64,000 nt of DNA from Escherichia coli. GTDB taxonomy: Bacteria > Pseudomonadota > Gammaproteobacteria > Enterobacterales > Enterobacteriaceae. The translations under genes and the position numbers were made by a program. Where the stretch lies: assembly GCF_044324785.1 (NCBI RefSeq), contig NZ_CP172128.1; one strand, given 5' to 3'. This document shows, one piece after another, positions 14,910 to 60,897 of this stretch; position 1 is the first letter of the stretch, and the number at the start of each line of letters is the position of its first letter. Below the pieces are notes generated by a model. That model did no database searches. It was not told where the DNA came from and worked only from the letters and a program-made list of their open reading frames with translations.

Positions 14910-15085
14910 TCAGCCCTGTTTAAACCCCGGCTTGCCGTTTTTGGCTCGCCATTCCTTCACTTCTTTTACGATACCTTCAGGACTGTCCTCACGGTCATCC
15001 CTTGGATAATAAATAAGATCAGAACCATCAGGGTGTTCAGCTAATCGACGAAATTCATCCACTAATTTATCGTCATCAGCCTCAG
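14910..15085 (-). pseudogene. colicin E-type DNase immunity protein (Im family), 3' fragment truncated by IS1
   Basis: minus-strand translation ...[41 protein letters not shown] matches the conserved C-terminus of Im2/Im7/Im9-type proteins; ORF enters IS1 end. Confidence 0.5.
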
Positions 15086-15853
15086 GGTGATGCTGCCAAC
15101 TTACTGATTTAGTATATGATGGTGTTTTTGAGGTGCTCCAGTGGCTTCTGTTTCTATCAGCTGTCCCTCCTGTTCAGCTACTGACGGGGTGGTGCGTAAC
15201 GGCAAAAGCACCGCCGGACATCAGCGCTATCTCTGCTCTCACTGCCGTAAAACATGGCAACTGCAGTTCACTTACACCGCTTCTCAACCCGGTACGCACC
15301 AGAAAATCATTGATATGGCCATGAATGGCGTTGGATGCCGGGCAACAGCCCGCATTATGGGCGTTGTCCTCAACACGATTTTACGTCACTTAAAAAACTC
15401 AGGCCGCAGTCGGTAACCTCGCGCATACAGCCGGGCAGTGACGTCATCGTCTGCGCGGAAATGGACGAACAGTGGGGCTATGTCGGGGCTAAATCGCGCC
15501 AGCGCTGGCTGTTTTACGCGTATGACAGGCTCCGGAAGACGGTTGTTGCGCACGTATTCGGTGAACGCACTATGGCGACGCTGGGGCGTCTTATGAGCCT
15601 GCTGTCACCCTTTGACGTGGTGATATGGATGACGGATGGCTGGCCGCTGTATGAATCCCGCCTGAAGGGAAAGCTGCACGTAATCAGCAAGCGATATACG
15701 CAGCGAATTGAGCGGCATAACCTGAATCTGAGGCAGCACCTGGCACGGCTGGGACGGAAGTCGCTGTCGTTCTCAAAATCGGTGGAGCTGCATGACAAAG
15801 TCATCGGGCATTATCTGAACATAAAACACTATCAATAAGTTGGAGTCATTACC
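15086..15853 (+). mobile_element. insAB: IS1 copy 1 (insA 15141-15416, insB 15335-15838)
   Basis: 768 bp, ends GGTGATGCTGCCAACTTACTG ... GTTGGAGTCATTACC; no flanking 9-bp duplication. Confidence 0.9.
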
Positions 15854-17171: not shown

Positions 17172-17192
17172 TTTTACACCTTGTTATTTTTG

Positions 17193-18523
17193 TAGACTGG
17201 CCCCCTGAATCTCCAGACAACCAATATCACTTAAATAAGTGATAGTCTTAATACTAGTTTTTAGACTAGTCATTGGAGAGCAGATGATTGATGTCTTAGG
17301 ACCGGAGAAACGCAGACGGCGTACTACACAGGAAAAGATCGCTATTGTTCAGCAGAGTTTTGAACCGGGAATGACGGTCTCCCTTGTTGCCCGGCAACAC
17401 GGTGTGGCAGCCAGCCAGTTATTTCTCTGGCGCAAGCAATACCAGGAGGGAAGTCTTACTGCTGTGGCCGCAGGAGAGCAGGTCGTTCCTGCCTCTGAAC
17501 TTGCTGCTGCCATGAAGCAGATTAAAGAACTCCAGCGCCTGCTCGGCAAAAAAACGATGGAAAATGAACTCCTTAAAGAAGCCGTTGAATACGGGCGTGC
17601 AAAAAAGTGGATAGCGCACGCGCCCTTATTGCCCGGGGATGGGGAGTAAGCTTAGTCAGCCGTTGTCTCCGGGTGTCGCGTGCGCAGTTGCACGTAATTC
17701 TCAGACGAACCGATGACTGGAAAGATGGTCGCCGCAGCCGTCACTCAGATGATACGGATGTGCTTCTCCGTATACACCATGTTATCGGAGAGCTGCCCAC
17801 GTATGGTTATCGTCGGGTATGGGCGCTGCTTCGCAGACAGGCCGAACTTGATGGTATGCCTGCGATCAATGCCAAACGTGTTTACCGGATCATGCGCCAG
17901 AATGCGCTGTTGCTTGAGCGAAAAACCGCTGTACCGCCATCGAAACGGGCACATACTGGCAAAGTGGCCGTGAAAGAAAGCAATCAACGATGGTGCTCTG
18001 ACGGGTTCGAGTTCCGCTGTGATAACGGAGAAAAACTGCGAGTCACGTTCGCGCTGGACTGCTGTGACCGTGAGGCACTGCACTGGGCAGTCACTACGGG
18101 CGGCTTCGACAGTGAAACAGTACAGGACGTCATGCTGGGAGCGGTGGAACGCCGCTTCGGCAACGAGCTTCCGGCGTCTCCAGTAGAGTGGCTGACGGAT
18201 AATGGTTCATGCTACCGGGCTAATGAAACACGGCAGTTTGCCCGGATGTTGGGGCTTGAACCGAAGAACACGGCGGTGCGGAGTCCGGAGAGTAACGGCA
18301 TAGCAGAGAGCTTCGTGAAAACGATAAAGCGTGACTACATCAGTATCATGCCTAAACCAGACGGGTTAACGGCAGCAAAGAACCTTGCAGAGGCGTTCGA
18401 GCATTATAACGAATGGCATCCGCATAGTGCACTGGGTTATCGCTCGCCACGGGAATATCTGCGGCAGCAGGCCAGTAATGGGTTAAGTGATAACAGGTGT
18501 CTGGAAATATAGGGGCAAATCCA
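17193..18523 (+). mobile_element. IS2 copy 1 (insC 17284-17649, insD 17607-18512)
   Basis: 1331 bp, IRL TAGACTGGCCCCCTGAATCTCCAGACAACC, right end ...GGGGCAAATCCA; 5-bp target duplication TTTTG on both sides. Confidence 0.9.
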
Positions 18524-18673
18524 TTTTGATAGTAAATTTACATATCAAAATAAATCATAAAATCGCTTTTTTTAGTGATAAAAACCTCAAAAACAAAAAC
18601 AATTAGTGATCAACATCTCATAAGTAGTACATTTATCAACCGTTCCATTAATGTTTCATTCTATCGCGAATTA

Positions 18674-19441
18674 GGTAATGACTCCAACTTATTGATAGTG
18701 TTTTATGTTCAGATAATGCCCGATGACTTTGTCATGCAGCTCCACCGATTTTGAGAACGACAGCGACTTCCGTCCCAGCCGTGCCAGGTGCTGCCTCAGA
18801 TTCAGGTTATGCCGCTCAATTCGCTGCGTATATCGCTTGCTGATTACGTGCAGCTTTCCCTTCAGGCGGGATTCATACAGCGGCCAGCCATCCGTCATCC
18901 ATATCACCACGTCAAAGGGTGACAGCAGGCTCATAAGACGCCCCAGCGTCGCCATAGTGCGTTCACCGAATACGTGCGCAACAACCGTCTTCCGGAGCCT
19001 GTCATACGCGTAAAACAGCCAGCGCTGGCGCGATTTAGCCCCGACATAGCCCCACTGTTCGTCCATTTCCGCGCAGACGATGACGTCACTGCCCGGCTGT
19101 ATGCGCGAGGTTACCGACTGCGGCCTGAGTTTTTTAAGTGACGTAAAATCGTGTTGAGGACAACGCCCATAATGCGGGCTGTTGCCCGGCATCCAACGCC
19201 ATTCATGGCCATATCAATGATTTTCTGGTGCGTACCGGGTTGAGAAGCGGTGTAAGTGAACTGCAGTTGCCATGTTTTACGGCAGTGAGAGCAGAGATAG
19301 CGCTGATGTCCGGCGGTGCTTTTGCCGTTACGCACCACCCCGTCAGTAGCTGAACAGGAGGGACAGCTGATAGAAACAGAAGCCACTGGAGCACCTCAAA
19401 AACACCATCATATACTAAATCAGTAAGTTGGCAGCATCACC
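18674..19441 (-). mobile_element. insAB: IS1 copy 2 (inverted relative to copy 1)
   Basis: 768 bp; insA/insB ORFs identical to copy 1; no flanking duplication. Confidence 0.9.
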
Positions 19442-19616
19442 CAAGGGGCCAGTCTAGCAGATTATGGTGCGCAGTTATACAACAGCAGTAATGAGGAGTC
19501 TACTATTTCTCTTGTTATGCCAGATGCAATTGAATGGAACGGAAAGAATACGCCAAGACGGCAATACATGATAAAATATATTGCCGTATTTAAATATTAA
19601 AATTTATTTTTGTAGA

Positions 19617-27949: not shown

Positions 27950-28618
27950 TTAGCCTTCCAGACCTGCAATAATGGCTTTGGAATCAGTAACCCAACCGAA
28001 AATGGCACCTTGTGCTTTGATCATCTCAAGGGCGTATTTCTGGAATTCCGGGAAATAGGAGCCAACGCAATCTTCCGGTATGATGCATTCATAGCCACGG
28101 TCATTTGCTTCACGCACGGTGGTGGTTACGCAAACTTCGGTAGTCACGCCACAAACAATAAGTGTCTTGATACCACGCTTTTGCAAAATCAGATGTAAGT
28201 CGGTTTGATAAAAAGCGCCTTTACCGGGTTTATCAATCACAGGTTCGCCTGTCACTGGATACAGTTCAGGAATGATGTCATGACCTGCCTCACCCCTGAC
28301 CAGAATGCGTCCCATCGGTCCTGGTTCACCAATAAAGGTTTTTCCGCCGCGCGTCAGTTTGGCTGATGGGCAGTCGCTTAAGTCTTCACGATGGCCTTCA
28401 CGGGTATGAATAACCATAATTCCTTTTTGACGTGCGGCTACCAGAACTTCTTTACATGGTGCGATAGCCGTGCGAACCAGTGAAACATCATTACCCAATG
28501 CTTCTCCAAACCCTCCTGCTTCGACAAAATCACGTTGCATGTCTATCATGATCAGTGCCGTTGTGCACGGATCAAAGGGTAATTCAAAGGGTTGAGCCTG
28601 AAAAATGGATATCGTCAT
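27950..28618 (-). CDS. isochorismatase-family cysteine hydrolase
   Basis: ALIMIDMQRDF ... catalytic-Cys region IVCGVTTEVCV typical of isochorismatase/N-carbamoylsarcosine amidase family; start at MTISIF with GGAG RBS. Confidence 0.75.
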   Translation of the reverse strand: MTISIFQAQPFELPFDPCTTALIMIDMQRDFVEAGGFGEALGNDVSLVRTAIAPCKEVLVAARQKGIMVIHTREGHREDLSDCPSAKLTRGGKTFIGEPGPMGRILVRGEAGHDIIPELYPVTGEPVIDKPGKGAFYQTDLHLILQKRGIKTLIVCGVTTEVCVTTTVREANDRGYECIIPEDCVGSYFPEFQKYALEMIKAQGAIFGWVTDSKAIIAGLEG

Positions 28619-34405: not shown

Positions 34406-34763
34406 TATTAGCTCCTTCTGATGCCATTCTATTTCAGGAAGGAGTGTCCGTTAAACCCAGGCTACCTCATAGTTCATTTTCTGTTGATGCGCTGAAGATC
34501 ATTTCATTCAAAATACTGACATCTTTCATAAAGACCTCCATTTTATGTCGGGGAAAAATAAAGCACAGATAAACTATATTTTCACATTTAATTTACAAAT
34601 TGGTGGTATCAGTCACAAATAACTTACAGGTCCGGTAATATCGGTCTGTTAGTGATATTTACTGAAAATGATGGAAAGATATTGATAACGTGGTTGCCAT
34701 AACCAATGCTTCAGGGAAGCCGATATGGTTAATGTCATTACAATCGTCGCCACAGTTGCCTGT

Positions 34764-36094
34764 TAGACTGGCCCCCTGAATCTCCAGACAACCAATATCA
34801 CTTAAATAAGTGATAGTCTTAATACTAGTTTTTAGACTAGTCATTGGAGAGCAGATGATTGATGTCTTAGGACCGGAGAAACGCAGACGGCGTACTACAC
34901 AGGAAAAGATCGCTATTGTTCAGCAGAGTTTTGAACCGGGAATGACGGTCTCCCTTGTTGCCCGGCAACACGGTGTGGCAGCCAGCCAGTTATTTCTCTG
35001 GCGCAAGCAATACCAGGAGGGAAGTCTTACTGCTGTGGCCGCAGGAGAGCAGGTCGTTCCTGCCTCTGAACTTGCTGCTGCCATGAAGCAGATTAAAGAA
35101 CTCCAGCGCCTGCTCGGCAAAAAAACGATGGAAAATGAACTCCTTAAAGAAGCCGTTGAATACGGGCGTGCAAAAAAGTGGATAGCGCACGCGCCCTTAT
35201 TGCCCGGGGATGGGGAGTAAGCTTAGTCAGCCGTTGTCTCCGGGTGTCGCGTGCGCAGTTGCACGTAATTCTCAGACGAACCGATGACTGGAAAGATGGT
35301 CGCCGCAGCCGTCACTCAGATGATACGGATGTGCTTCTCCGTATACACCATGTTATCGGAGAGCTGCCCACGTATGGTTATCGTCGGGTATGGGCGCTGC
35401 TTCGCAGACAGGCCGAACTTGATGGTATGCCTGCGATCAATGCCAAACGTGTTTACCGGATCATGCGCCAGAATGCGCTGTTGCTTGAGCGAAAAACCGC
35501 TGTACCGCCATCGAAACGGGCACATACTGGCAAAGTGGCCGTGAAAGAAAGCAATCAACGATGGTGCTCTGACGGGTTCGAGTTCCGCTGTGATAACGGA
35601 GAAAAACTGCGAGTCACGTTCGCGCTGGACTGCTGTGACCGTGAGGCACTGCACTGGGCAGTCACTACGGGCGGCTTCGACAGTGAAACAGTACAGGACG
35701 TCATGCTGGGAGCGGTGGAACGCCGCTTCGGCAACGAGCTTCCGGCGTCTCCAGTAGAGTGGCTGACGGATAATGGTTCATGCTACCGGGCTAATGAAAC
35801 ACGGCAGTTTGCCCGGATGTTGGGGCTTGAACCGAAGAACACGGCGGTGCGGAGTCCGGAGAGTAACGGCATAGCAGAGAGCTTCGTGAAAACGATAAAG
35901 CGTGACTACATCAGTATCATGCCTAAACCAGACGGGTTAACGGCAGCAAAGAACCTTGCAGAGGCGTTCGAGCATTATAACGAATGGCATCCGCATAGTG
36001 CACTGGGTTATCGCTCGCCACGGGAATATCTGCGGCAGCAGGCCAGTAATGGGTTAAGTGATAACAGGTGTCTGGAAATATAGGGGCAAATCCA
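34764..36094 (+). mobile_element. IS2 copy 2
   Basis: ORFs identical to copy 1; 5-bp target duplication CCTGT on both sides. Confidence 0.9.
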
Positions 36095-38058: not shown

Positions 38059-38230
38059 TAAGTCACAATTATGAATTGTGATTTCTTCTATAAAAAAGAG
38101 ACCACTGCAATATGTGATCTCTTGTATTATTTCATAATTGTTAAAGCCACTTCACATTATGCTCACATTGTACGGATATATTCGTAATGTTTTTTTATAT
38201 CGAATGAACGACAGAAGTTGTGGAGATTTT

Positions 38231-38584
38231 ATGAAAGTAATTAGCATGAAATTTATTTTTATTTTAACGATTATTGCTCTTGCTGCTGTTTTTTTCTGGT
38301 CTGAAGATAAAGGTCCGGCATGCTATCAGGTCAGCGATGAACAGGCCAGAACGTTTGTAAAAAATGATTACCTGCAAAGAATGAAACGCTGGGACAACGA
38401 TGTACAACTTCTTGGTACAGAAATCCCGAAAATTACATGGGAAAAGATTGAGAGAAGTTTAACAGATGTTGAAGATGAAAAAACACTTCTTGTCCCATTT
38501 AAAGCTGAAGGCCCGGAGGGTAAGAGAATGTATTATGGCATGTACCATTGTGAGGAGGGATATGTTGAATATGCGAATGACTAA
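38231..38584 (+). CDS. cmi: colicin M immunity protein
   Basis: 117 aa with N-terminal membrane anchor; convergent with and adjacent to cma. Confidence 0.7.
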   Translation: MKVISMKFIFILTIIALAAVFFWSEDKGPACYQVSDEQARTFVKNDYLQRMKRWDNDVQLLGTEIPKITWEKIERSLTDVEDEKTLLVPFKAEGPEGKRMYYGMYHCEEGYVEYAND

Positions 38585-38633
38585 TACACTGTTATAAAGG
38601 CTGCATAAAAATGCCGGAACCCCGGCCCTTATA

Positions 38634-39449
38634 TTATCGCTTACCACTTTCTTTAATGTGAATTTCACCAGGAAGCAGTATCTGGTACTCTTTACCAGAA
38701 AACATCGCCCCGAGCCTTGTGAGCGACTCTCCGATAATGCCACGGTGAGTGCTGGCGTTAAAATCATATTTATCATCATATGAACGAACAACGCCATTGT
38801 AAATCCAGGAGCCATTGGCAGAGATAGTTAAAGTACCTTCTGTTTTCAGTGTGATATTACCAAGATATGCACCGGTAATAACATTATAATCACCAGTGGC
38901 ATGTGTGAACTTTGTAGAAACAGGGAATGTACCTACTACACCAGATTTTATAATGTCTTTTATCTGATTAATTTTCATAGGGGAAATTTTAAGACCAATG
39001 TTGGCGATATTAACGCTCCTTTCAGCGCCATTACCCCATAAATAGTGAGCAAGCGCCACAATTGGTGTAGTGACATTACCGCTCATTTGTTTCATATTCA
39101 TTGAGCGATAGTCATATTGACTTGGCGCTGGTTTTGCGAAGTGGTAAGCGTCATAAACGCTTATTCCAGGGTGAAGAACCAGATTTCGGTCGGCGTTACA
39201 GAAGTAACCAATATTTGTCGATATGATCTGCAATGTGAGAGGGTTGCTGGCCCCATGTTTTTTGATGTAATCCTCAAGTTGAGTTAAAGCCTGAAGACAC
39301 ATGTTTGGACTCTGGAAAAAACTATAAACAACCTGGACTAAAAGAGGGCCAGCACCAGGCACATGTGGTGCTGAAAGAGAAAATGCACCATTGCCATAAC
39401 TTGGTAAGTTAGTTGATGGTGATGGTGCATGAACAGTTAAGGTTTCCAT
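38634..39449 (-). CDS. cma: colicin M (lipid II-cleaving bacteriocin)
   Basis: 271 aa from METLTVHAPSPSTNLPSYGNGAFSL.. to ..EIHIKESGKR matches colicin M. Confidence 0.85.
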   Translation of the reverse strand: METLTVHAPSPSTNLPSYGNGAFSLSAPHVPGAGPLLVQVVYSFFQSPNMCLQALTQLEDYIKKHGASNPLTLQIISTNIGYFCNADRNLVLHPGISVYDAYHFAKPAPSQYDYRSMNMKQMSGNVTTPIVALAHYLWGNGAERSVNIANIGLKISPMKINQIKDIIKSGVVGTFPVSTKFTHATGDYNVITGAYLGNITLKTEGTLTISANGSWIYNGVVRSYDDKYDFNASTHRGIIGESLTRLGAMFSGKEYQILLPGEIHIKESGKR

Positions 39450-39690
39450 ACATAACTCCTTATAAGTTAACAAGATAACAGAGTTCGCCGCTGGCTAACG
39501 CCTCCGCCGGCGAACAAACCCCATGAGAGAGGCTCCCCATAACATTGTTTGCCTGATATGCCGTTAAAAATGGTAGGGCAGCTCCTGAACTACCATATAT
39601 AAGATATATATCTGTACACTCCATTAAATACTGGAAATATATTGAGAACTCTGATATATAATCTATATATAAAATACAAAAGGTATATAT

Positions 39691-40218
39691 ATGACCAGCA
39701 ATAAAGATAAGAACAAGAAAGCAAACGAAATATTATATGCATTTTTCATAATCGGGATTATTCCATTAATGGCTATATTAATACTTCGAATAAATGATCC
39801 ATATTCTCAAGTACTGTACTACTTATATAATAAGGTGGCATTTCTCCCTTCTATTACATCATTGCATGATCCCGTCATGACAACACTTATGTCAAACTAC
39901 AACAAGACAGCACCAGTTATGGGTATTCTCGTTTTTCTTTGCACATATAAGACAAGAGAAATCATAAAGCCAGTAACAAGAAAACTTGTTGTGCAATCCT
40001 GTTTCTGGGGGCCCGTTTTTTATGCCATTCTGATTTATATCACACTGTTCTATAATCTGGAACTAACAACAGCAGGTGGTTTTTTTAAATTATTATCTCA
40101 TAATGTCATCACTCTGTTTATTTTATATTGCTCCATTTACTTTACTGTTTTAACCATGACATATGCGATTTTACTGATGCCATTGCTTGTCATTAAATAT
40201 TTTAAAGGGAGGCAGTAA
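39691..40218 (+). CDS. cbi: colicin B immunity protein
   Basis: 175-aa polytopic membrane protein located between cba and cma on the opposite strand. Confidence 0.7.
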   Translation: MTSNKDKNKKANEILYAFFIIGIIPLMAILILRINDPYSQVLYYLYNKVAFLPSITSLHDPVMTTLMSNYNKTAPVMGILVFLCTYKTREIIKPVTRKLVVQSCFWGPVFYAILIYITLFYNLELTTAGGFFKLLSHNVITLFILYCSIYFTVLTMTYAILLMPLLVIKYFKGRQ

Positions 40219-40900: not shown

Positions 40901-41668
40901 GGTGATGCTGCCAACTTACTGATTTAGTGTATGATGGTGTTTTTGAGGTGCTCCAGTGGCTTCTGTTTCTATCAGCTGTCCCTCCTGTTCAGCTACTGAC
41001 GGGGTGGTGCGTAACGGCAAAAGCACCGCCGGACATCAGCGCTATCTCTGCTCTCACTGCCGTAAAACATGGCAACTGCAGTTCACTTACACCGCTTCTC
41101 AACCCGGTACGCACCAGAAAATCATTGATATGGCCATGAATGGCGTTGGATGCCGGGCAACAGCCCGCATTATGGGCGTTGGCCTCAACACGATTTTACG
41201 TCACTTAAAAAACTCAGGCCGCAGTCGGTAACCTCGCGCATACAGCCGGGCAGTGACGTCATCGTCTGCGCGGAAATGGACGAACAGTGGGGCTATGTCG
41301 GGGCTAAATCGCGCCAGCGCTGGCTGTTTTACGCGTATGACAGGCTCCGGAAGACGGTTGTTGCGCACGTATTCGGTGAACGCACTATGGCGACGCTGGG
41401 GCGTCTTATGAGCCTGCTGTCACCCTTTGACGTGGTGATATGGATGACGGATGGCTGGCCGCTGTATGAATCCCGCCTGAAGGGAAAGCTGCACGTAATC
41501 AGCAAGCGATATACGCAGCGAATTGAGCGGCATAACCTGAATCTGAGGCAGCACCTGGCACGGCTGGGACGGAAGTCGCTGTCGTTCTCAAAATCGGTGG
41601 AGCTGCATGACAAAGTCATCGGGCATTATCTGAACATAAAACACTATCAATAAGTTGGAGTCATTACC
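40901..41668 (+). mobile_element. insAB: IS1 copy 3, inserted in cba
   Basis: 768 bp; 9-bp target duplication AACTATTAC (40892-40900 and 41669-41677); minor aa differences from copies 1/2. Confidence 0.9.
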
Positions 41669-45873: not shown

Positions 45874-47145
45874 TCAGAATGAAGCAATGGGGATCTCAGT
45901 CCATTGTGTTGTATACGAAGGCGAGAGCATTTCCCGTTTCATTTGCCATTCAGGGGCGGTTCCTCGCCCCGCAAACCACACTTTCCCTTTTCCCGACTGG
46001 TTCAGTTCATCGAGTGTTTTCATTAACTTTTCACTGTTTTTACGGGGCTGGATTTCATCAAATAATCCCGGCTGCGCTATACCCGATGGTGTGAAATCAG
46101 CCAGCATGACTCCTGCCTTCATATAGCGGTACCCTTCACGCCAGACATGGTTTAAGGCTCTGCATGCGGCGGCAATAATGTCCCGGCTGTCCTGTGTGGG
46201 CAATGGAAGCTTTTCCACAGCGGCATTGCTGTAACAGGGTTCTTTTACTGCAAAGGGGGATGTCCGTACAAATGTCGTCACCTGCCGGCAATACTGACGC
46301 TCCCCACGTAGTTTCTCTGCGGCCCGCTCTGCATACTGAACAACAGCCTGGTGCATGGCATCTTTGTCTGTGATTCGTTCACCAAAACTGCGACTACAGA
46401 CAATCTGCTGTTTTGCCGGTGGTGCTTCTTCCAGGGATATGCAGGACTCGCCGTTGAGTTCGCGTACCGTACGCTCAAGAATGACGCTGAAGTTTTTCCG
46501 GATGAATGCCGTGTTAGCCTGCGCCAGCTGCAGTGCTGTGTTAATACCCAGCGCATTCAGCTTTTCCGTCAGTCTGCGTCCTACTCCCCAGACCTCACCA
46601 ACTGGCTGCAGTCCCAGTAGCTTCAAGATCCGATTACGGTTTTCTGCCGTCAGCGCGACCACACCGGAAAACTGTGGCCATTGCTTTGTTGCCCACTGTG
46701 CACTTTTAGCCAGCGTTTTTGTAGGCGCAATGCCCACCCCCATGGTGAGTCCTGTCCAGCTCTTTACCTGTTCCCTGAGCTGATGACCAAAAAACTCCGG
46801 AGAGATGCAATGATTTATCCCCCGCAAATCAATAAACATTTCATCAATTGAGTAGGGCTCAACTGCGGGAGAAAGCGACTCCAGAACAGCCATGACCCGT
46901 TGGCTCATGCTGTGGTACAGCGCATAATTGCTGGAAAATACATGTATTTTCTTCTCCAGGCGCATCTGTCTCACCTGAAACCAGGGCTGCCCCATTCTGA
47001 TGCCAAGGGCTTTTGCCTCCGGGCTGCGCGCGATCACACAGCCATCGTTATTGCTGAGTACGATGACCGGTTCGTTGCGAAGGTCCGGGCGGAAAACTTT
47101 TTCACATGAGGCGTAGAAACTGTTGATATCAGCCAGTGCAAACAT
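45874..47145 (-). CDS. impB: translesion DNA polymerase V catalytic subunit (UmuC/ImpB family)
   Basis: 423 aa Y-family polymerase (MFALADINSFYASCE..., SIDEMF). Confidence 0.85.
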   Translation of the reverse strand: MFALADINSFYASCEKVFRPDLRNEPVIVLSNNDGCVIARSPEAKALGIRMGQPWFQVRQMRLEKKIHVFSSNYALYHSMSQRVMAVLESLSPAVEPYSIDEMFIDLRGINHCISPEFFGHQLREQVKSWTGLTMGVGIAPTKTLAKSAQWATKQWPQFSGVVALTAENRNRILKLLGLQPVGEVWGVGRRLTEKLNALGINTALQLAQANTAFIRKNFSVILERTVRELNGESCISLEEAPPAKQQIVCSRSFGERITDKDAMHQAVVQYAERAAEKLRGERQYCRQVTTFVRTSPFAVKEPCYSNAAVEKLPLPTQDSRDIIAAACRALNHVWREGYRYMKAGVMLADFTPSGIAQPGLFDEIQPRKNSEKLMKTLDELNQSGKGKVWFAGRGTAPEWQMKREMLSPSYTTQWTEIPIASF

Positions 47146-47582
47146 CAGCGTAACTCCCGCGTCCTGTGTATCACGTGAGTGACAACACCAAAAATACAGA
47201 TGTTTTCCGGATACAGTGTGCGGAACTCCGGGCTGTCTGAAACCGGCTCCAGTGCCGGGCGTGGGCGCAACAGCAGTCGTTTGACGGTGAACTCACCGTC
47301 GATCTCAGCGATAACGATGTCCCCGTGTTGTGGTTTTTCGGCCCTGTCCACTACCAGCAGATCACCATTCTGCACGCCAGCCTGGTTCATCGATTCACCG
47401 CTGGCGCGCAGAAAGAAGGTGGCTGCAGGTCTGCTGATGCAATAGCTGTTCAGATCCAGTTCCTGCTCAGCATAATCAGTGGCAGGCGAAGGAAAACCGG
47501 CCTGGCAACGATCGGCAAACAACGGTCGCACGTAACTGTCATCGCCTGAAGGGTCAGCCGGACGGTGATAAACGGTACTCAT
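47145..47582 (-). CDS. impA: UmuD/ImpA-like self-cleaving SOS protein
   Basis: 145 aa, S24 peptidase (LexA-like) domain with Ser/Lys dyad region (ASGESM ... FTVKRL). Confidence 0.8.
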   Translation of the reverse strand: MSTVYHRPADPSGDDSYVRPLFADRCQAGFPSPATDYAEQELDLNSYCISRPAATFFLRASGESMNQAGVQNGDLLVVDRAEKPQHGDIVIAEIDGEFTVKRLLLRPRPALEPVSDSPEFRTLYPENICIFGVVTHVIHRTRELR

Positions 47583-47826
47583 GCTGCAGGCAGCCAGCTG
47601 TCGTCCTGCCAGATTTCTTCCAGCAGAGACAGGATACGTTCTTTATCCTTGTCGTTGCGGGCTCCTGTGACAGATACAGACGGGGCGCTGCCCTGGTCTA
47701 TACGCAGCCAGATTTCCGGGTAGTGTGGTTTCAGACGTTGTTCGATTTCATTCTGTAGCGCCTGAAGTGTGCCTGATTTGAGGTTTTTGTGCTCTGGCGG
47801 TCGAAAAGAATTTCAATGCGGATCAT
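47579..47826 (-). pseudogene. impC: impC-like small ORF with apparent frameshift
   Basis: ATG at 47826 encodes MIRIEILFDRQSTK then stops; a second frame continues to a stop overlapping impA start; frames join at an A/T5 homopolymer near 47783-47787. Confidence 0.45.
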
Positions 47827-47848
47827 GTTCTCATCTCCCTTTTCTATT

Positions 47849-47866
47849 GCTGTATGTATATACAGT
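47849..47866. promoter_or_regulatory. LexA (SOS) box upstream of impCAB
   Basis: GCTGTATGTATATACAGTA, perfect CTGT-N8-ACAG. Confidence 0.75.
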
Positions 47867-48219
47867 ATTCTAATAACTGAATCCACACACAGTCAAATGT
47901 CATTATTGTGACTAAAAAACGCTCAATTCTCTGAGGGTGTGGCTGTATGCCTGCTGTGGAGTGCTGTGTCCAGCTTATCCACAGCATTTTGTGCACGGTT
48001 CTGTGGACAAAATACCTGGTTACCCAGGCCGTGCCGGCACGTTAACCGGGCTGCATCCGATGCAAGTATGTCGCTGTCGCCGGCCTCCTCACCCGGTCAC
48101 GTTTCGTCGTTCCTCCTCCACGCGCTGCGGCTTCGGGGCCGCACCTGCATTCGTATGCGGTCGCCCGGTAACAGGTGCGGCACGGCCTGATGGAGGCCGC
48201 ATGTGAGAGGAGAATTCCC

Positions 48220-49146: not shown

Positions 49147-49194
49147 AGTATGACGGAGACGGGCGGGAAACCGCCCGTTTCTTTTCCGACAAAG

Positions 49195-49551
49195 GATGTC
49201 GCCGGCGGCTCCGCTTTACCCGGCCATGCGGGGCATGGCCTTGTGGGTTTTCAACTCTGTAGCCTCAGCGTCGTGTGCGGGCTGTGCCGTGCCTCCATCG
49301 TAGCCGGGCTTCTGCGGGCGGGTTGCAAGGTAAGGTGAACCGCTGCGGTCACCCGGTCCCTCCTTCCCGTCTGCCGTGATTTTCCGGTCGTTCACCCGCT
49401 CAGATTTCGCGGTCTCACCCTCCAACTCCCGTCAGCCGTGTGCGTCAGGCTGCGGCTTCCCTTGCGCCCTTGCAACCCTGCAGGCCCGGCAAAGATGGAG
49501 GCACGGCACCGCCCGGTGTCGCGGAATATGTGAACAACGGAGGAAAACATC
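49195..49551 (+). repeat. GC-rich structured leading-region repeat, type B copy 1 (Frpo/ssi-like)
   Basis: ~360 bp nearly identical to 56148-56507; ends at klcA start. Confidence 0.6.
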
Positions 49552-49977
49552 ATGCAATATGCGAAACCTGTCACTCTGAATGTTGAAGAGTGCGACCGTC
49601 TCTCCTTTCTGCCTTACCTGTTTGGCAACGATTTTCTGTATGCCGAGGCGTATGTGTACGCGCTGGCGCAAAAAATGATGCCGGAATATCAGGGAGGCTT
49701 CTGGCACTTCATCCGCCTGCCGGACGGTGGCGGTTACATGATGCCGGATGGCGACCGTTTCCACATGGTGAACGGTGCAAACTGGTTTGACCGTACCGTG
49801 AGTGCTGATGCCTGCGGCATCATTCTGACTTCCCTTGTGATTAACCGCCAGTTGTGGCTGTACCACGACAGCGGGGATGCGGGACTGACACACCTTTACC
49901 GGATGCGCGATGCGCAGTTGTGGAGCCACATCGAATTTCACCCCGAATGCAATGCGATTTACGCGGCACTGGACTGA
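49552..49977 (+). CDS. klcA: KlcA/ArdB-family antirestriction protein
   Basis: 141 aa, size and sequence character of KlcA/ArdB. Confidence 0.65.
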
Positions 49978-50023
49978 TTAACGGACGGGGCGGCGATGCC
50001 GCCCCTGTAAAGGAGACGAGAAC

Positions 50024-50443
50024 ATGTACTGTACTGTTAAAGAAATTATCCGCGAAGTGCTGGATACAGACGTGCCGGACAGTGAATGCGTTTTTGCTGT
50101 GGTGCTGACCCGTGGGGATGTACGTCACATAGCCCGGGACTGGAACCTGACAGACGATGAGCTGGAAACCGTCATGCAGCGGCTGGACGATGCCTTTGAG
50201 CATGGTGCTGATGTCAGCATTGTTCACGACGTTGTTCGTGAACTGATGGAGGAAAAGCGCGTAAACCGTCTTGTAACAGTCCCTGCGGTGCTGCTGGAAA
50301 AAGTGATGGTGATGGCTGGTAGTGAAATTTATCGCCTCCATGCTGTAGGGAGCGAGAACGGGGGCGACGGTGACGCATTTGTCAGGGAAGAACGTGAGAT
50401 TATGCGGTTGATGCGTCAGGCGCTGGACGGGGAGAACGGGTAA
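50024..50443 (+). CDS. hypothetical leading-region protein
   Basis: 139-aa ORF, acidic; not recognised. Confidence 0.45.
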   Translation: MYCTVKEIIREVLDTDVPDSECVFAVVLTRGDVRHIARDWNLTDDELETVMQRLDDAFEHGADVSIVHDVVRELMEEKRVNRLVTVPAVLLEKVMVMAGSEIYRLHAVGSENGGDGDAFVREEREIMRLMRQALDGENG

Positions 50444-50835: not shown

Positions 50836-51403
50836 ACTTCGGCTCCCGGCTGCCTGGCGGCATCCGGTCGTCAGGCCCGACTACGACAGGCAGCTGCTTG
50901 CGCACCCGCCAGTCTCCGCCGAACCCGCTGGCGCGGTTTCGGGCTGTCGCTACGGTCCGATGCGTGAAAAACCGGGCTTGCAGCGACCGTTCCGGTCGCG
51001 CCGCCTCTGTCGCGCCGTGACCTGCGCTCCCTGCACACCTGACGGTGTGTGAGGAAACTGCGCCTGATGGCGCAGCAGTCTTCCCTCCTGCCGCCACCTC
51101 TGCGGCCTGTTTCCCGCTGTGGACTTTCCGGGGGGCAGACGTAACCCCCTCCCGTTCCATCTGTCCAGGGTGAGATGCACCGGCCACAAAATTTTTAGCC
51201 ATGAACCCGGCTAAAAATTTTGCGTCCGCCCCCGGACAGCTGTCCCGTGAGGCGGTAAACGGGCCCCCATCGGAAAGGTCCACTGCGGGGAGAAACCCCT
51301 GTGAAGTGGACGGCAGGAGGAGCTTTCGCTCCTCTGAAGGGGCACATGAACGTCCCGTCGCCGGTATCCGGTTTATCTCACATCTTTCAGTCAGGAGGTT
51401 CTT
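50836..51403 (+). repeat. GC-rich structured leading-region repeat, type A copy 1 (Frpo/ssi-like)
   Basis: homologous to 57192-57739 and 60527-60897; ends at ssb start. Confidence 0.6.
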
Positions 51404-56042: not shown

Positions 56043-56147
56043 ACCAGTGGAGGTATGCTTGAGGGGCAGGGACATGCCGGTCATGATCGTTTCGTTCCAG
56101 GGGTGGTCTGGAGATCATGCGGTGTGCTCCCTGCTCTCGCCGGAATA

Positions 56148-56507
56148 AGGACGTCGCCGGCGGCTCCGCTTTTACCCGGCCATGCGGGGCATGGCCTTGT
56201 GGGTTTTCAGGTATGAAGCCATCGTGTCGTGTGCGGGCTGTGCCGTGCCTCCATCGTAGCCGGGCTTCTGCGGGCGGGATGCAAAGGTACGCTTCGCCGC
56301 TGCGGTCACCCGGTCCCTCCTTCCCGTCTGCCGTGATTTTCCGGTCGTTCACCCGCTCAGATTTCGCGGTCTCACCCTCCAACTCCCGTCAGCCGTGCGC
56401 GTCGGGCTGCGGCTTTCCTTGCGCCCTTGCATCCCTGCAGGCCCGGCAAGGATGGAGGCACGGCACCGCCCGGTGCCGCAGAACATGTGACTATGGAGGA
56501 TTCGGGA
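56148..56507 (+). repeat. GC-rich structured leading-region repeat, type B copy 2 (Frpo/ssi-like)
   Basis: nearly identical to 49195-49551; ends at ardA start. Confidence 0.6.
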
Positions 56508-57008
56508 ATGTCTGTTGTTGCACCTGCTGTATACGTTGGAACCTGGCACAAATACAACTGCGGAAGCATCGCCGGACGCTGGTTTGACCTGACCACGTTT
56601 GATGATGAACGCGATTTTTTCGCCGCCTGCCGTGCCCTTCACCAGGATGAAACCGATCCGGAACTGATGTTTCAGGATTATGAGGGATTCCCGGGGAATA
56701 TGGCCTCTGAATGTCATATCAACTGGGCCTGGGTTGAAGGCTTCCGCCGGGCGCGGGATGAAGGCTGCGAAGAGGCTTATCGTCTCTGGGTGGATGATAC
56801 CGGTGAGACGGATTTTGACACCTTCCGCGATGCCTGGTGGGGCGAGGCTGACAGTGAGGAGGCTTTTGCGGTTGAGTTCGCCAGTGATACCGGCCTGCTG
56901 GCTGGCGTGCCGGAGACGGTGGCGCTCTATTTTGACTATGAGGCGTATGCGCGGGATTTATTCCTGGACTCCTTCACCTTTATTGACGGTCATGTGTTCC
57001 GTCGGTGA
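56508..57008 (+). CDS. ardA: ArdA antirestriction protein (DNA mimic)
   Basis: 166 aa from MSVVAPAVYVGTWHKYNCGSIAGRWFDL.., highly acidic. Confidence 0.85.
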   Translation: MSVVAPAVYVGTWHKYNCGSIAGRWFDLTTFDDERDFFAACRALHQDETDPELMFQDYEGFPGNMASECHINWAWVEGFRRARDEGCEEAYRLWVDDTGETDFDTFRDAWWGEADSEEAFAVEFASDTGLLAGVPETVALYFDYEAYARDLFLDSFTFIDGHVFRR

Positions 57009-57191
57009 TTTACTCCCCCGCTCCGGCGGGGGTATGGCCTGCCGGGCCGCCGGAAAACCCTGGCAGGCTTACGCCTGCCTGAAATGCAGGAGGGCCGCGC
57101 CTGCGGCGCTGCCCTTCCTGCCCGTCATGGTGTGAGGCATTTTTCTGTTATGTCGTTTCTGTTGTTCTGATTTCCGGAGGCGGGGACACCC

Positions 57192-57739
57192 TTCGGCTCC
57201 CGGCTGCCTGGCGGCATCCGGTCGTCAGGCCCGACTCCGACAGGCAGCTGCTGGCGCACCCGCCAGTCTCCGCCGAACCCGCTGGCGCGGTTTCGGGCTG
57301 CCGCTACGGTCCGATGTCTGAAAAACCAGGCCTGCAGCGACCGTTCCGGTCGCGCCGCCCCTGTCGCGCCGGAAACGGCGCTCCCTGCACACCTGACGGT
57401 GTGTAAGGCCACTGCGCCTGATGGCGCAGTTGTCTGCCCTTCCGCCGCCACCCCTGCGGCCTGTTTCCCGCTGTGGACTTTCCGGGGGCTGAAGCGGCCA
57501 CAACACGTTTCAGCCGTCCAGGGGAGAGATGTACCAGCCACAAAACTTTTTGCCGCAGGCGTCAAAAACTTTTGCGTCTGCCCCCGGACAACTGCCCCGT
57601 GCCGTGGCAGTCGCTGCCCCATCGGAAAGGTCCACTGCGGGGAGAAACCCCGAAGAAGTGGACGGCAGAAGGGGCTTTCGCCCCTCCGGGGAATAACCGG
57701 TCGGCCCGGCGACCTGATTCAGCAGAAGGAGACTTTTTC
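57192..57739 (+). repeat. GC-rich structured leading-region repeat, type A copy 2 (Frpo/ssi-like)
   Basis: homologous to 50836-51403 and 60527-60897. Confidence 0.6.
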
Positions 57740-60320: not shown

Positions 60321-60526
60321 AAAACACCTTTGAAAAAGTGAAAAAACTTCACTTTATTTTATCATCATAATCATCAAATCAGCGCGATAAATAAGTGTAA
60401 AAAAATGAAGAAATTTCACTTTTTTTTGCTTGTAAATGTCGTGCGGTTTTCTCTGTTTTCACCTGTGCGGGAGTGGTGTGCCAGTGACCACCACATGCCA
60501 TTGTTGTGCCGTCGTTTTTCTTCAGT

Positions 60527-60897
60527 CGCGCCGTATGCGGCGCTCCCTGCACACCTTACGGTGTGTAAGGCCACTGCGCCTGATGGCGCAGCTGTCTCTG
60601 CCTGTCTGCCGCCGCACTGCGGCCTGTTCTCCGCAGACGGACTTTCCGGGGGTACATACATGACCACATCCCGTTTCAGTCGTCCAGGGGAGAGATGTAC
60701 CAGCCACAAAACTTTTTGCCGCAGGCGTCAAAAACTTTTGCGTCTGCCCCCGGACAACTGCCCCGTGACGTGGTGAGCGTCCCCCGTCGGAAAGGTCCAC
60801 TGCGGGGAAATCCCCGAAGACCCGGACGGCAGAAGGAGCTTCGCTCCTCCGGGAAATGACCTGGCTGACCCGGCAGTCGTGACGATGAGGAGACAAT
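60527..60897 (+). repeat. GC-rich structured leading-region repeat, type A copy 3 (Frpo/ssi-like)
   Basis: homologous to the 3' ~370 bp of the other type A copies. Confidence 0.6.

Follow-up and report, generated by a model that had tools for sequence, protein, structure and literature searches.

The window (the whole 64-kb stretch of DNA that was analyzed) carries an operon on its minus strand in which impC, impA and impB follow one another in this order, each stop codon overlapping the next start, as is evident from the ORF list and the translations. The junction of impC and impA is an ATGA (47582-47579), and that of impA and impB a TGATG (47147-47143). Judged from its sequence, the locus is an impCAB operon under LexA repression, carried on an I-complex (IncK2/Z-type) plasmid. 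Features of the operon are summarized in Table 1.

Table 1. Coordinates of the impCAB genes and of their predicted control elements in the window.
Feature	Coordinates	Strand	Evidence and remarks
impB, UmuC-like Y-family DNA polymerase	45874..47145	-	Intact, 423 aa; NF002955; PF00817, PF11799, PF13438
impA, UmuD-like S24 self-cleaving subunit	47145..47582	-	Intact, 145 aa; PF00717 at 3e-24; NF007621
impC 3′ part, residues ~15-82, DinI-like domain	47579..47783	-	Three-frame translation and tblastn; out of frame with the start
impC 5′ fragment as encoded, 31 aa	47731..47826	-	Translation: 14 true ImpC residues and 17 out-of-frame residues, premature TGA
A5 homopolymer, site of the one-base deletion	47784..47788	-	A6 in the intact gene
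impC Shine-Dalgarno GGGAG	47835..47839	-	Sequence; predicted anti-SD duplex -8.4 kcal/mol
Main LexA (SOS) box	47848..47867		Operon strand reads TACTGTATATACATACAGCA; between the -10 hexamer and the impC Shine-Dalgarno
Promoter-like site of impCAB, sigma-70 type	47867..47896	-	Consensus scan, 10/12 positions; 18-nt spacer
-10 hexamer TAGAAT	47872-47867	-	Part of the promoter-like site
-35 hexamer TTGACT	47896-47891	-	Part of the promoter-like site
Weak second LexA-like box AACTGAATCCACACACAGTC	47875..47894		Putative, read from sequence; overlaps the -35 hexamer

ImpA is the plasmid homologue of UmuD and ImpB that of UmuC, which together make up the error-prone translesion polymerase. An earlier reading of the same DNA, made from the letters alone (the sequence-only reading), described both genes as intact, and this agrees with their full-length frames and domain profile matches. 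The impA product scores 143 bits against NF007621 (cut-off 110) and the impB product 793 bits against NF002955 (cut-off 431). Within the translated ImpA sequence a QA/GFPSPA cleavage-site context and the motifs GESM and TVKR could be distinguished, which we take to be the counterparts of those of UmuD.

The position of the predicted promoter agrees with that of the published LexA-regulated impCAB promoter (PMC12211044). The sequence-only reading had placed a perfect LexA box at this operon. Both operon and box are present, but the box, which reads GCTGTATGTATATACAGTA on the plus strand (47849-47867), is near-consensus rather than perfect, as its 20-mer (47848-47867) agrees with TACTG(TA)5CAGTA at 18 of the 20 positions. 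No other 20-mer in the 64-kb window matches this consensus with three or fewer mismatches, and none was found in 100 shuffles. The 20-mer test took the place of a search for the bare core CTGT-N8-ACAG, which is not significant alone in the window (2 found vs 0.74 expected). The only core match besides that of impCAB is CTGTCACTGGATACAG at 28249-28264, which is within chance expectation.

The main box of the window is identical to the impCAB SOS box of plasmid pTF2, for which a heterology index of 1.60 is given, and the second, putative box is the same 20-mer as that listed for pTF2 impCAB with an index of 13.49 (PMC12211044, Table 1). In pTF2 released from LexA control, the levels of ImpC, ImpA and ImpB rose 21-fold, 9-fold and 2-fold, respectively (PMC12211044). 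In the window, impA and impB still lie behind what is, by sequence, an SOS-controlled promoter, to which LexA is predicted to bind.

The defect lies in the first gene. Translation from the impC ATG at 47826 (minus strand) yields MIRIEILFDRQSTK, after which the A5 run shifts the frame and a premature TGA (47733-47731) is reached. The rest of ImpC (NLKSG...SWLPAA) is encoded in another frame, which extends to the TGA at 47581-47579 that overlaps the impA ATG at 47582. The claim that impC can be read only by combining two frames is therefore borne out by translation; the 5-nt run at which they meet exists as well, at the position given in Table 1 and not at 47783-47787 as first reported. A 4-nt run had been expected to restore a single frame. 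This was wrong, since A4 leads to another premature stop; A3 also brings impC back to one frame, and the intact gene has A6, spanning codons 14-15.

With the tract repaired to A6, the 82-aa product is identical in every residue to canonical ImpC (UniRef IMPC_ECOLX, found on at least 1000 contigs) and matches the DinI family (PF06183) at 8e-18 over residues 19-79. The 31-aa product that is actually encoded gave no Pfam match, PF06183 included, so by translation the frameshift takes away almost all of the DinI-like fold. This exact 31-aa product is already on record in other public assemblies. A search of the whole window revealed no second copy of impC or dinI that could compensate. The three impCAB frames are not all intact, and the locus is a member of this operon family with a defective, frameshifted first gene.

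The closest relative of the window is pLH10-b-1-A (NZ_CP100531.1), an IncK2/Z plasmid of 169 kb from pooled poultry faeces in Switzerland. Apart from two extra IS3-family copies, the two are about 99.97% identical (99.96-99.99% across all 64 kb). Over 61 kb, no indels separate them other than GG against GGG at one site, a single base at an IS junction and a short variant patch; because they are so few, the window is not a noisy assembly. NZ_CP100531.1 has the same A5 tract, and its 2,087-nt operon is 100% identical to that of the window. The operon, including A5, is also 100% identical in the drafts GCA_902828525.1, GCA_965255025.1 (together with three similar places) and GCA_051163525.1. Three French plasmids (OY754359, OY757114 and OY757127) carry A5 too, and the 341-nt impC region matches exactly in all three; OY754359, whose source on record is a hen, differs from the window by 3 substitutions across the 2,087-nt operon. 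Five of these A5 loci give gap-free alignments with the window across about 6.1 kb.

The intact counterpart is found in pE16-3, an IncK2/Z sister plasmid from chicken in China. Over 5.4 kb it differs from the window by a single A and by 4 substitutions, all of which lie beyond the operon. Its impC has A6, the sole difference across the operon, and carries the annotation of a complete 82-aa DinI-like protein. Its ImpA and ImpB share their RefSeq accessions with those of the window (WP_000109071.1 and WP_000457496.1, respectively).

Several other elements of the window were noted in the course of these comparisons. The two IS3-family copies (~1.34 kb each) are located at 17181-18525 and 34760-36094 and are missing at these sites in pLH10-b-1-A; three IS1 copies are found at 15085-15853, 18674-19442 and 40901-41668. 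Near impCAB, the only small indels relative to pLH10-b-1-A are at 50012, where GG stands against GGG in the Shine-Dalgarno region of a DUF1380 gene, and at 50436-50442, a variant patch at the 3′ end of the DUF1380 gene that fits the 139-aa and 140-aa forms of other plasmids. A non-coding repeat of ~350 nt occurs twice (49192-49544 and 56147-56500, 92% identical), in each case just upstream of an antirestriction gene (an ORF at 49552-49977 and ardA at about 56509-57009). The minus strands of these repeats are predicted to fold into long single-stranded DNA hairpins (z-scores -5.4 and -3.3), and in this respect they look like the Frpo/ssi-type single-strand promoters of plasmid leading regions. 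Further repeat pairs are 50837-51334 with 57191-57686, and 57363-57710 with 60525-60874.

Transfer of the NZ_CP100531.1 annotation by coordinate offset gave putative positions for the cargo genes. A colicin M gene with its immunity gene and a colicin B immunity gene would lie at about 38200-40200, with an IS1 copy just beyond the latter; the colicin B activity gene is absent from the PLSDB gene table of NZ_CP100531.1, a table that is itself incomplete. The same offset puts an alpha-galactosidase/sucrose-type sugar cluster, an iron ABC transporter and a carbamate kinase/fdrA cluster, as well as the toxin-antitoxin pairs ccdAB, vapBC and relE/parE, within positions 1-45000 of the window.

Comparison with impC of other plasmids, a check proposed in the sequence-only reading, revealed that A6 is the norm. 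The exact 72-nt A6 segment was present in 2,318 of 2,486 PLSDB records, the exact 71-nt A5 segment in 11 of 2,485 (0.44%), and A7 in a single record. Among complete E. coli genomes, 7 of 1,741 records carry the A5 segment. The A5 tract is not confined to the haplotype of the window: it also occurs on a SPAdes-named contig with 140x coverage (L011), which has 22 substitutions against the window in an ungapped alignment, and on a third haplotype (L022), for which otherwise identical A6 counterparts are present in PLSDB. An independent null allele, in which CAG is changed to TAG (Q25 amber, ~75 nt into impC) and A6 is intact, was identified in three further loci. Ordinary mutation thus occasionally removes impC, the short A run being a mild hotspot.

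The defect is easily overlooked in annotated records. PGAP turns the A5 allele into a “DinI-like family protein” truncated at its N terminus, which is 44 or 55 aa long and starts at ATC (WP_229997119.1 and WP_225556493.1), and the Q25 amber alleles are annotated with the same 55-aa “DinI-like” protein. The two accessions are recorded on 171 and 272 contigs, respectively, some of which have Q25 amber and A6 instead, while some are noisy assemblies. In addition, homopolymer deletions recur in impB of many public “complete” plasmids (G5 to G4 at 46823, T6 to T5 at 46794 and C5 to C4 at 46259, in window coordinates). Deletions of this kind in the impAB region were observed in nine of the compared loci; they resemble systematic long-read errors that create false pseudogenes.

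The sequence-only reading had left open whether the run marks a genuine pseudogene, a phase-variable site or a sequencing error. In the last case the true plasmid would have A6 and an intact impC, and a long-read consensus would have dropped one A. Such errors do occur at this site. Of the 11 A5 plasmids in PLSDB, at least five (CP031286, LC620534, MN335640, CP048312 and CP054316) are noisy, with 6 to 15 more gapped positions in impAB, within the same 2 kb, that are mostly homopolymer deletions. Uncorrected long reads leave this pattern, and read error explains roughly half of the other public A5 records. The A5 contig of FDAARGOS_1300, tried as a clean independent case, was downgraded because the same assembly also contains an A6 twin, and the excess of 11 A5 records over one A7 points to a bias towards deletion. 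However, the operon of the window has no further homopolymer indel, the indels that separate the window from its closest relative over 61 kb are few, and the same A5 occurs free of gaps in at least 8 assemblies of different accession series, some of which resemble short-read drafts (as judged from contig sizes and names). A systematic miscall at this site should also affect far more than 0.44% of records. A literature search on the sequencing platform of strain LH10-b-1 found no publication on this strain. We consider an artefact in the window unlikely. Near-identical plasmids and drafts of several independent submitters share A5 without any other indel, which, together with the A6 sister pE16-3, supports a genuine pseudogene; it is very probable that A5 in the window is a true, inherited one-base deletion and that impC is a pseudogene in a plasmid lineage.

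Two other explanations would leave ImpC production possible in an A5 plasmid. If the tract were a contingency switch, it would toggle between 5 and 6 A at high frequency, turn ImpC on and off and tune ImpAB by translational coupling. The mutation does sit in a homopolymer, A5 has arisen on at least three distinct haplotypes, so that the site mutates recurrently, and the predicted coupling described below would lend such changes a regulatory effect. Known homopolymeric switches generally have at least 7 bases, though, against only 5 or 6 here. Across about 2,490 plasmids the tract hardly varies in length, every sampled member of the A5 lineage has kept A5 with zero reversions, and with 73 A or T runs of 6 or more bases in the window there is nothing special about this tract. 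A long tract varying in length in both directions among close relatives, as at homopolymeric contingency loci, was not found here, and phase variation is highly improbable. Recoding would yield full-length ImpC if tRNA-Lys slipped by -1 on A AAA A or if RNA polymerase slipped. Worked out from the sequence, a -1 slip of P-site tRNA-Lys on A5 would give exactly the wild-type ...STK-NLKSG..., and leakage by AAA slippage at the percent level or less is plausible. Re-pairing of the A-site codon ACC is nevertheless impossible, so the site falls short of a canonical X XXY YYZ heptamer. Since its flanking sequence does not differ from that of the single-frame gene, no stimulatory element has been selected. 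In at least 93% of records the homologues are single-frame, and about 99.5% of relatives keep ImpC in a single frame, which makes the two-frame layout derived and recent. With a zero frame of A AAA ACC and a layout that is not conserved, the site does not correspond to programmed -1 frameshifting of the dnaX or IS3 type. On these sequence features programmed frameshifting is rejected and trace leakage is conceivable; production of full-length ImpC by recoding has very little probability.

The simplest and most likely reading of these comparisons is a recent one-base deletion inherited in one plasmid lineage, which comes from poultry where the source is recorded. On this reading, replication slippage removed one A from the A6 run that spans codons 14-15 of the gene. 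The A5 allele would then have been passed on by descent in the plasmid lineage, with impC reduced to a pseudogene for a 31-aa peptide without the DinI-like domain.

The deletion may also affect the genes downstream. Unlike impC and impB, impA appears to have no Shine-Dalgarno sequence (predicted anti-SD duplex of -2.2 kcal/mol vs -8.4 for impC and -6.9 for impB), and the 20 nt before its AUG are predicted to pair with the impC coding sequence. From the overlap of the impA AUG with the impC stop, the lack of an own Shine-Dalgarno and this upstream pairing, we infer that translation of impA is coupled to that of impC. With A5, ribosomes would stop 149 nt upstream of impA and ImpA synthesis would fall, so the frameshift probably lowers ImpA translation too, according to this model. 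With less ImpA, the ImpA′2-ImpB polymerase would be attenuated, and UV protection and mutagenesis would be weakened, not abolished. Rho-dependent polarity over the 148-nt untranslated stretch was also considered and discarded, the composition of this stretch not being C-rich (C/G 1.10).

In I-complex plasmids impC is under strong purifying selection (median dN/dS 0.001; PMC10286972), and overexpression of impCAB causes a severe growth defect. Given this selection, loss of impC is unusual and not the norm. It could be neutral or cost-saving for the plasmids concerned. Alternatively, if ImpC acts as DinI does, its loss might lift an inhibition of ImpA cleavage. It is a doubtful proposal, to which we attach little probability, that the loss of ImpC together with the coupling is adaptive in a poultry-associated IncK2/Z megaplasmid lineage. 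It would act either by making an operon that is toxic when overexpressed cheaper or by removing a DinI-like brake on ImpA cleavage and so altering SOS mutagenesis, and the A tract would be a recurrent, occasionally reversible hotspot.

Published work already covers the operon, its LexA box and the resemblance of ImpC to DinI, and the A5 allele is already in public records. The practical points are that this allele marks a poultry IncK2/Z plasmid lineage, that automatic annotation masks the impC defect behind the 44-aa and 55-aa “DinI-like” calls with ATC starts, and that pLH10-b-1-A and pE16-3 form a natural A5/A6 pair usable for asking about the role of ImpC and the dependence of impA on coupling.

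The impCAB operon of the IncI1 plasmid TP110 was reportedly described by Lodwick, Owen and Strike in 1990. The locus analyzed here resembles that of TP110 and other I-complex plasmids in its impC-impA-impB order with overlapping stops and starts, and in an ImpC that is canonical after repair. impCAB has also been studied in pMS7163B (PMC10286972) and pTF2 (PMC12211044), with the latter of which the window shares both the main LexA box and the weak second box. It differs from published impCAB in the absence of one A from A6, resulting in a 31-aa ImpC, and in nothing else. Residues 3-79 of repaired ImpC align with residues 2-78 of E. coli DinI (PDB 1GHH; E = 7e-6). DinI modulates RecA filaments as well as the cleavage of UmuD; we know of no direct biochemistry on ImpC. 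Repaired ImpC scores 41 bits against the NCBIfam DinI equivalog, below its cut-off of 111, and is therefore considered a paralogue and not DinI itself, while the window impC as encoded has only 14 residues in frame. A LexA-controlled S24 self-cleaving subunit and a Y-family polymerase are common to umuDC, mucAB, samAB and impAB, but the former three consist of two genes and lack a DinI-like first gene. With its broken impC, the operon of the window would functionally have a two-gene layout like theirs, except that its first remaining gene is without a ribosome-binding site.
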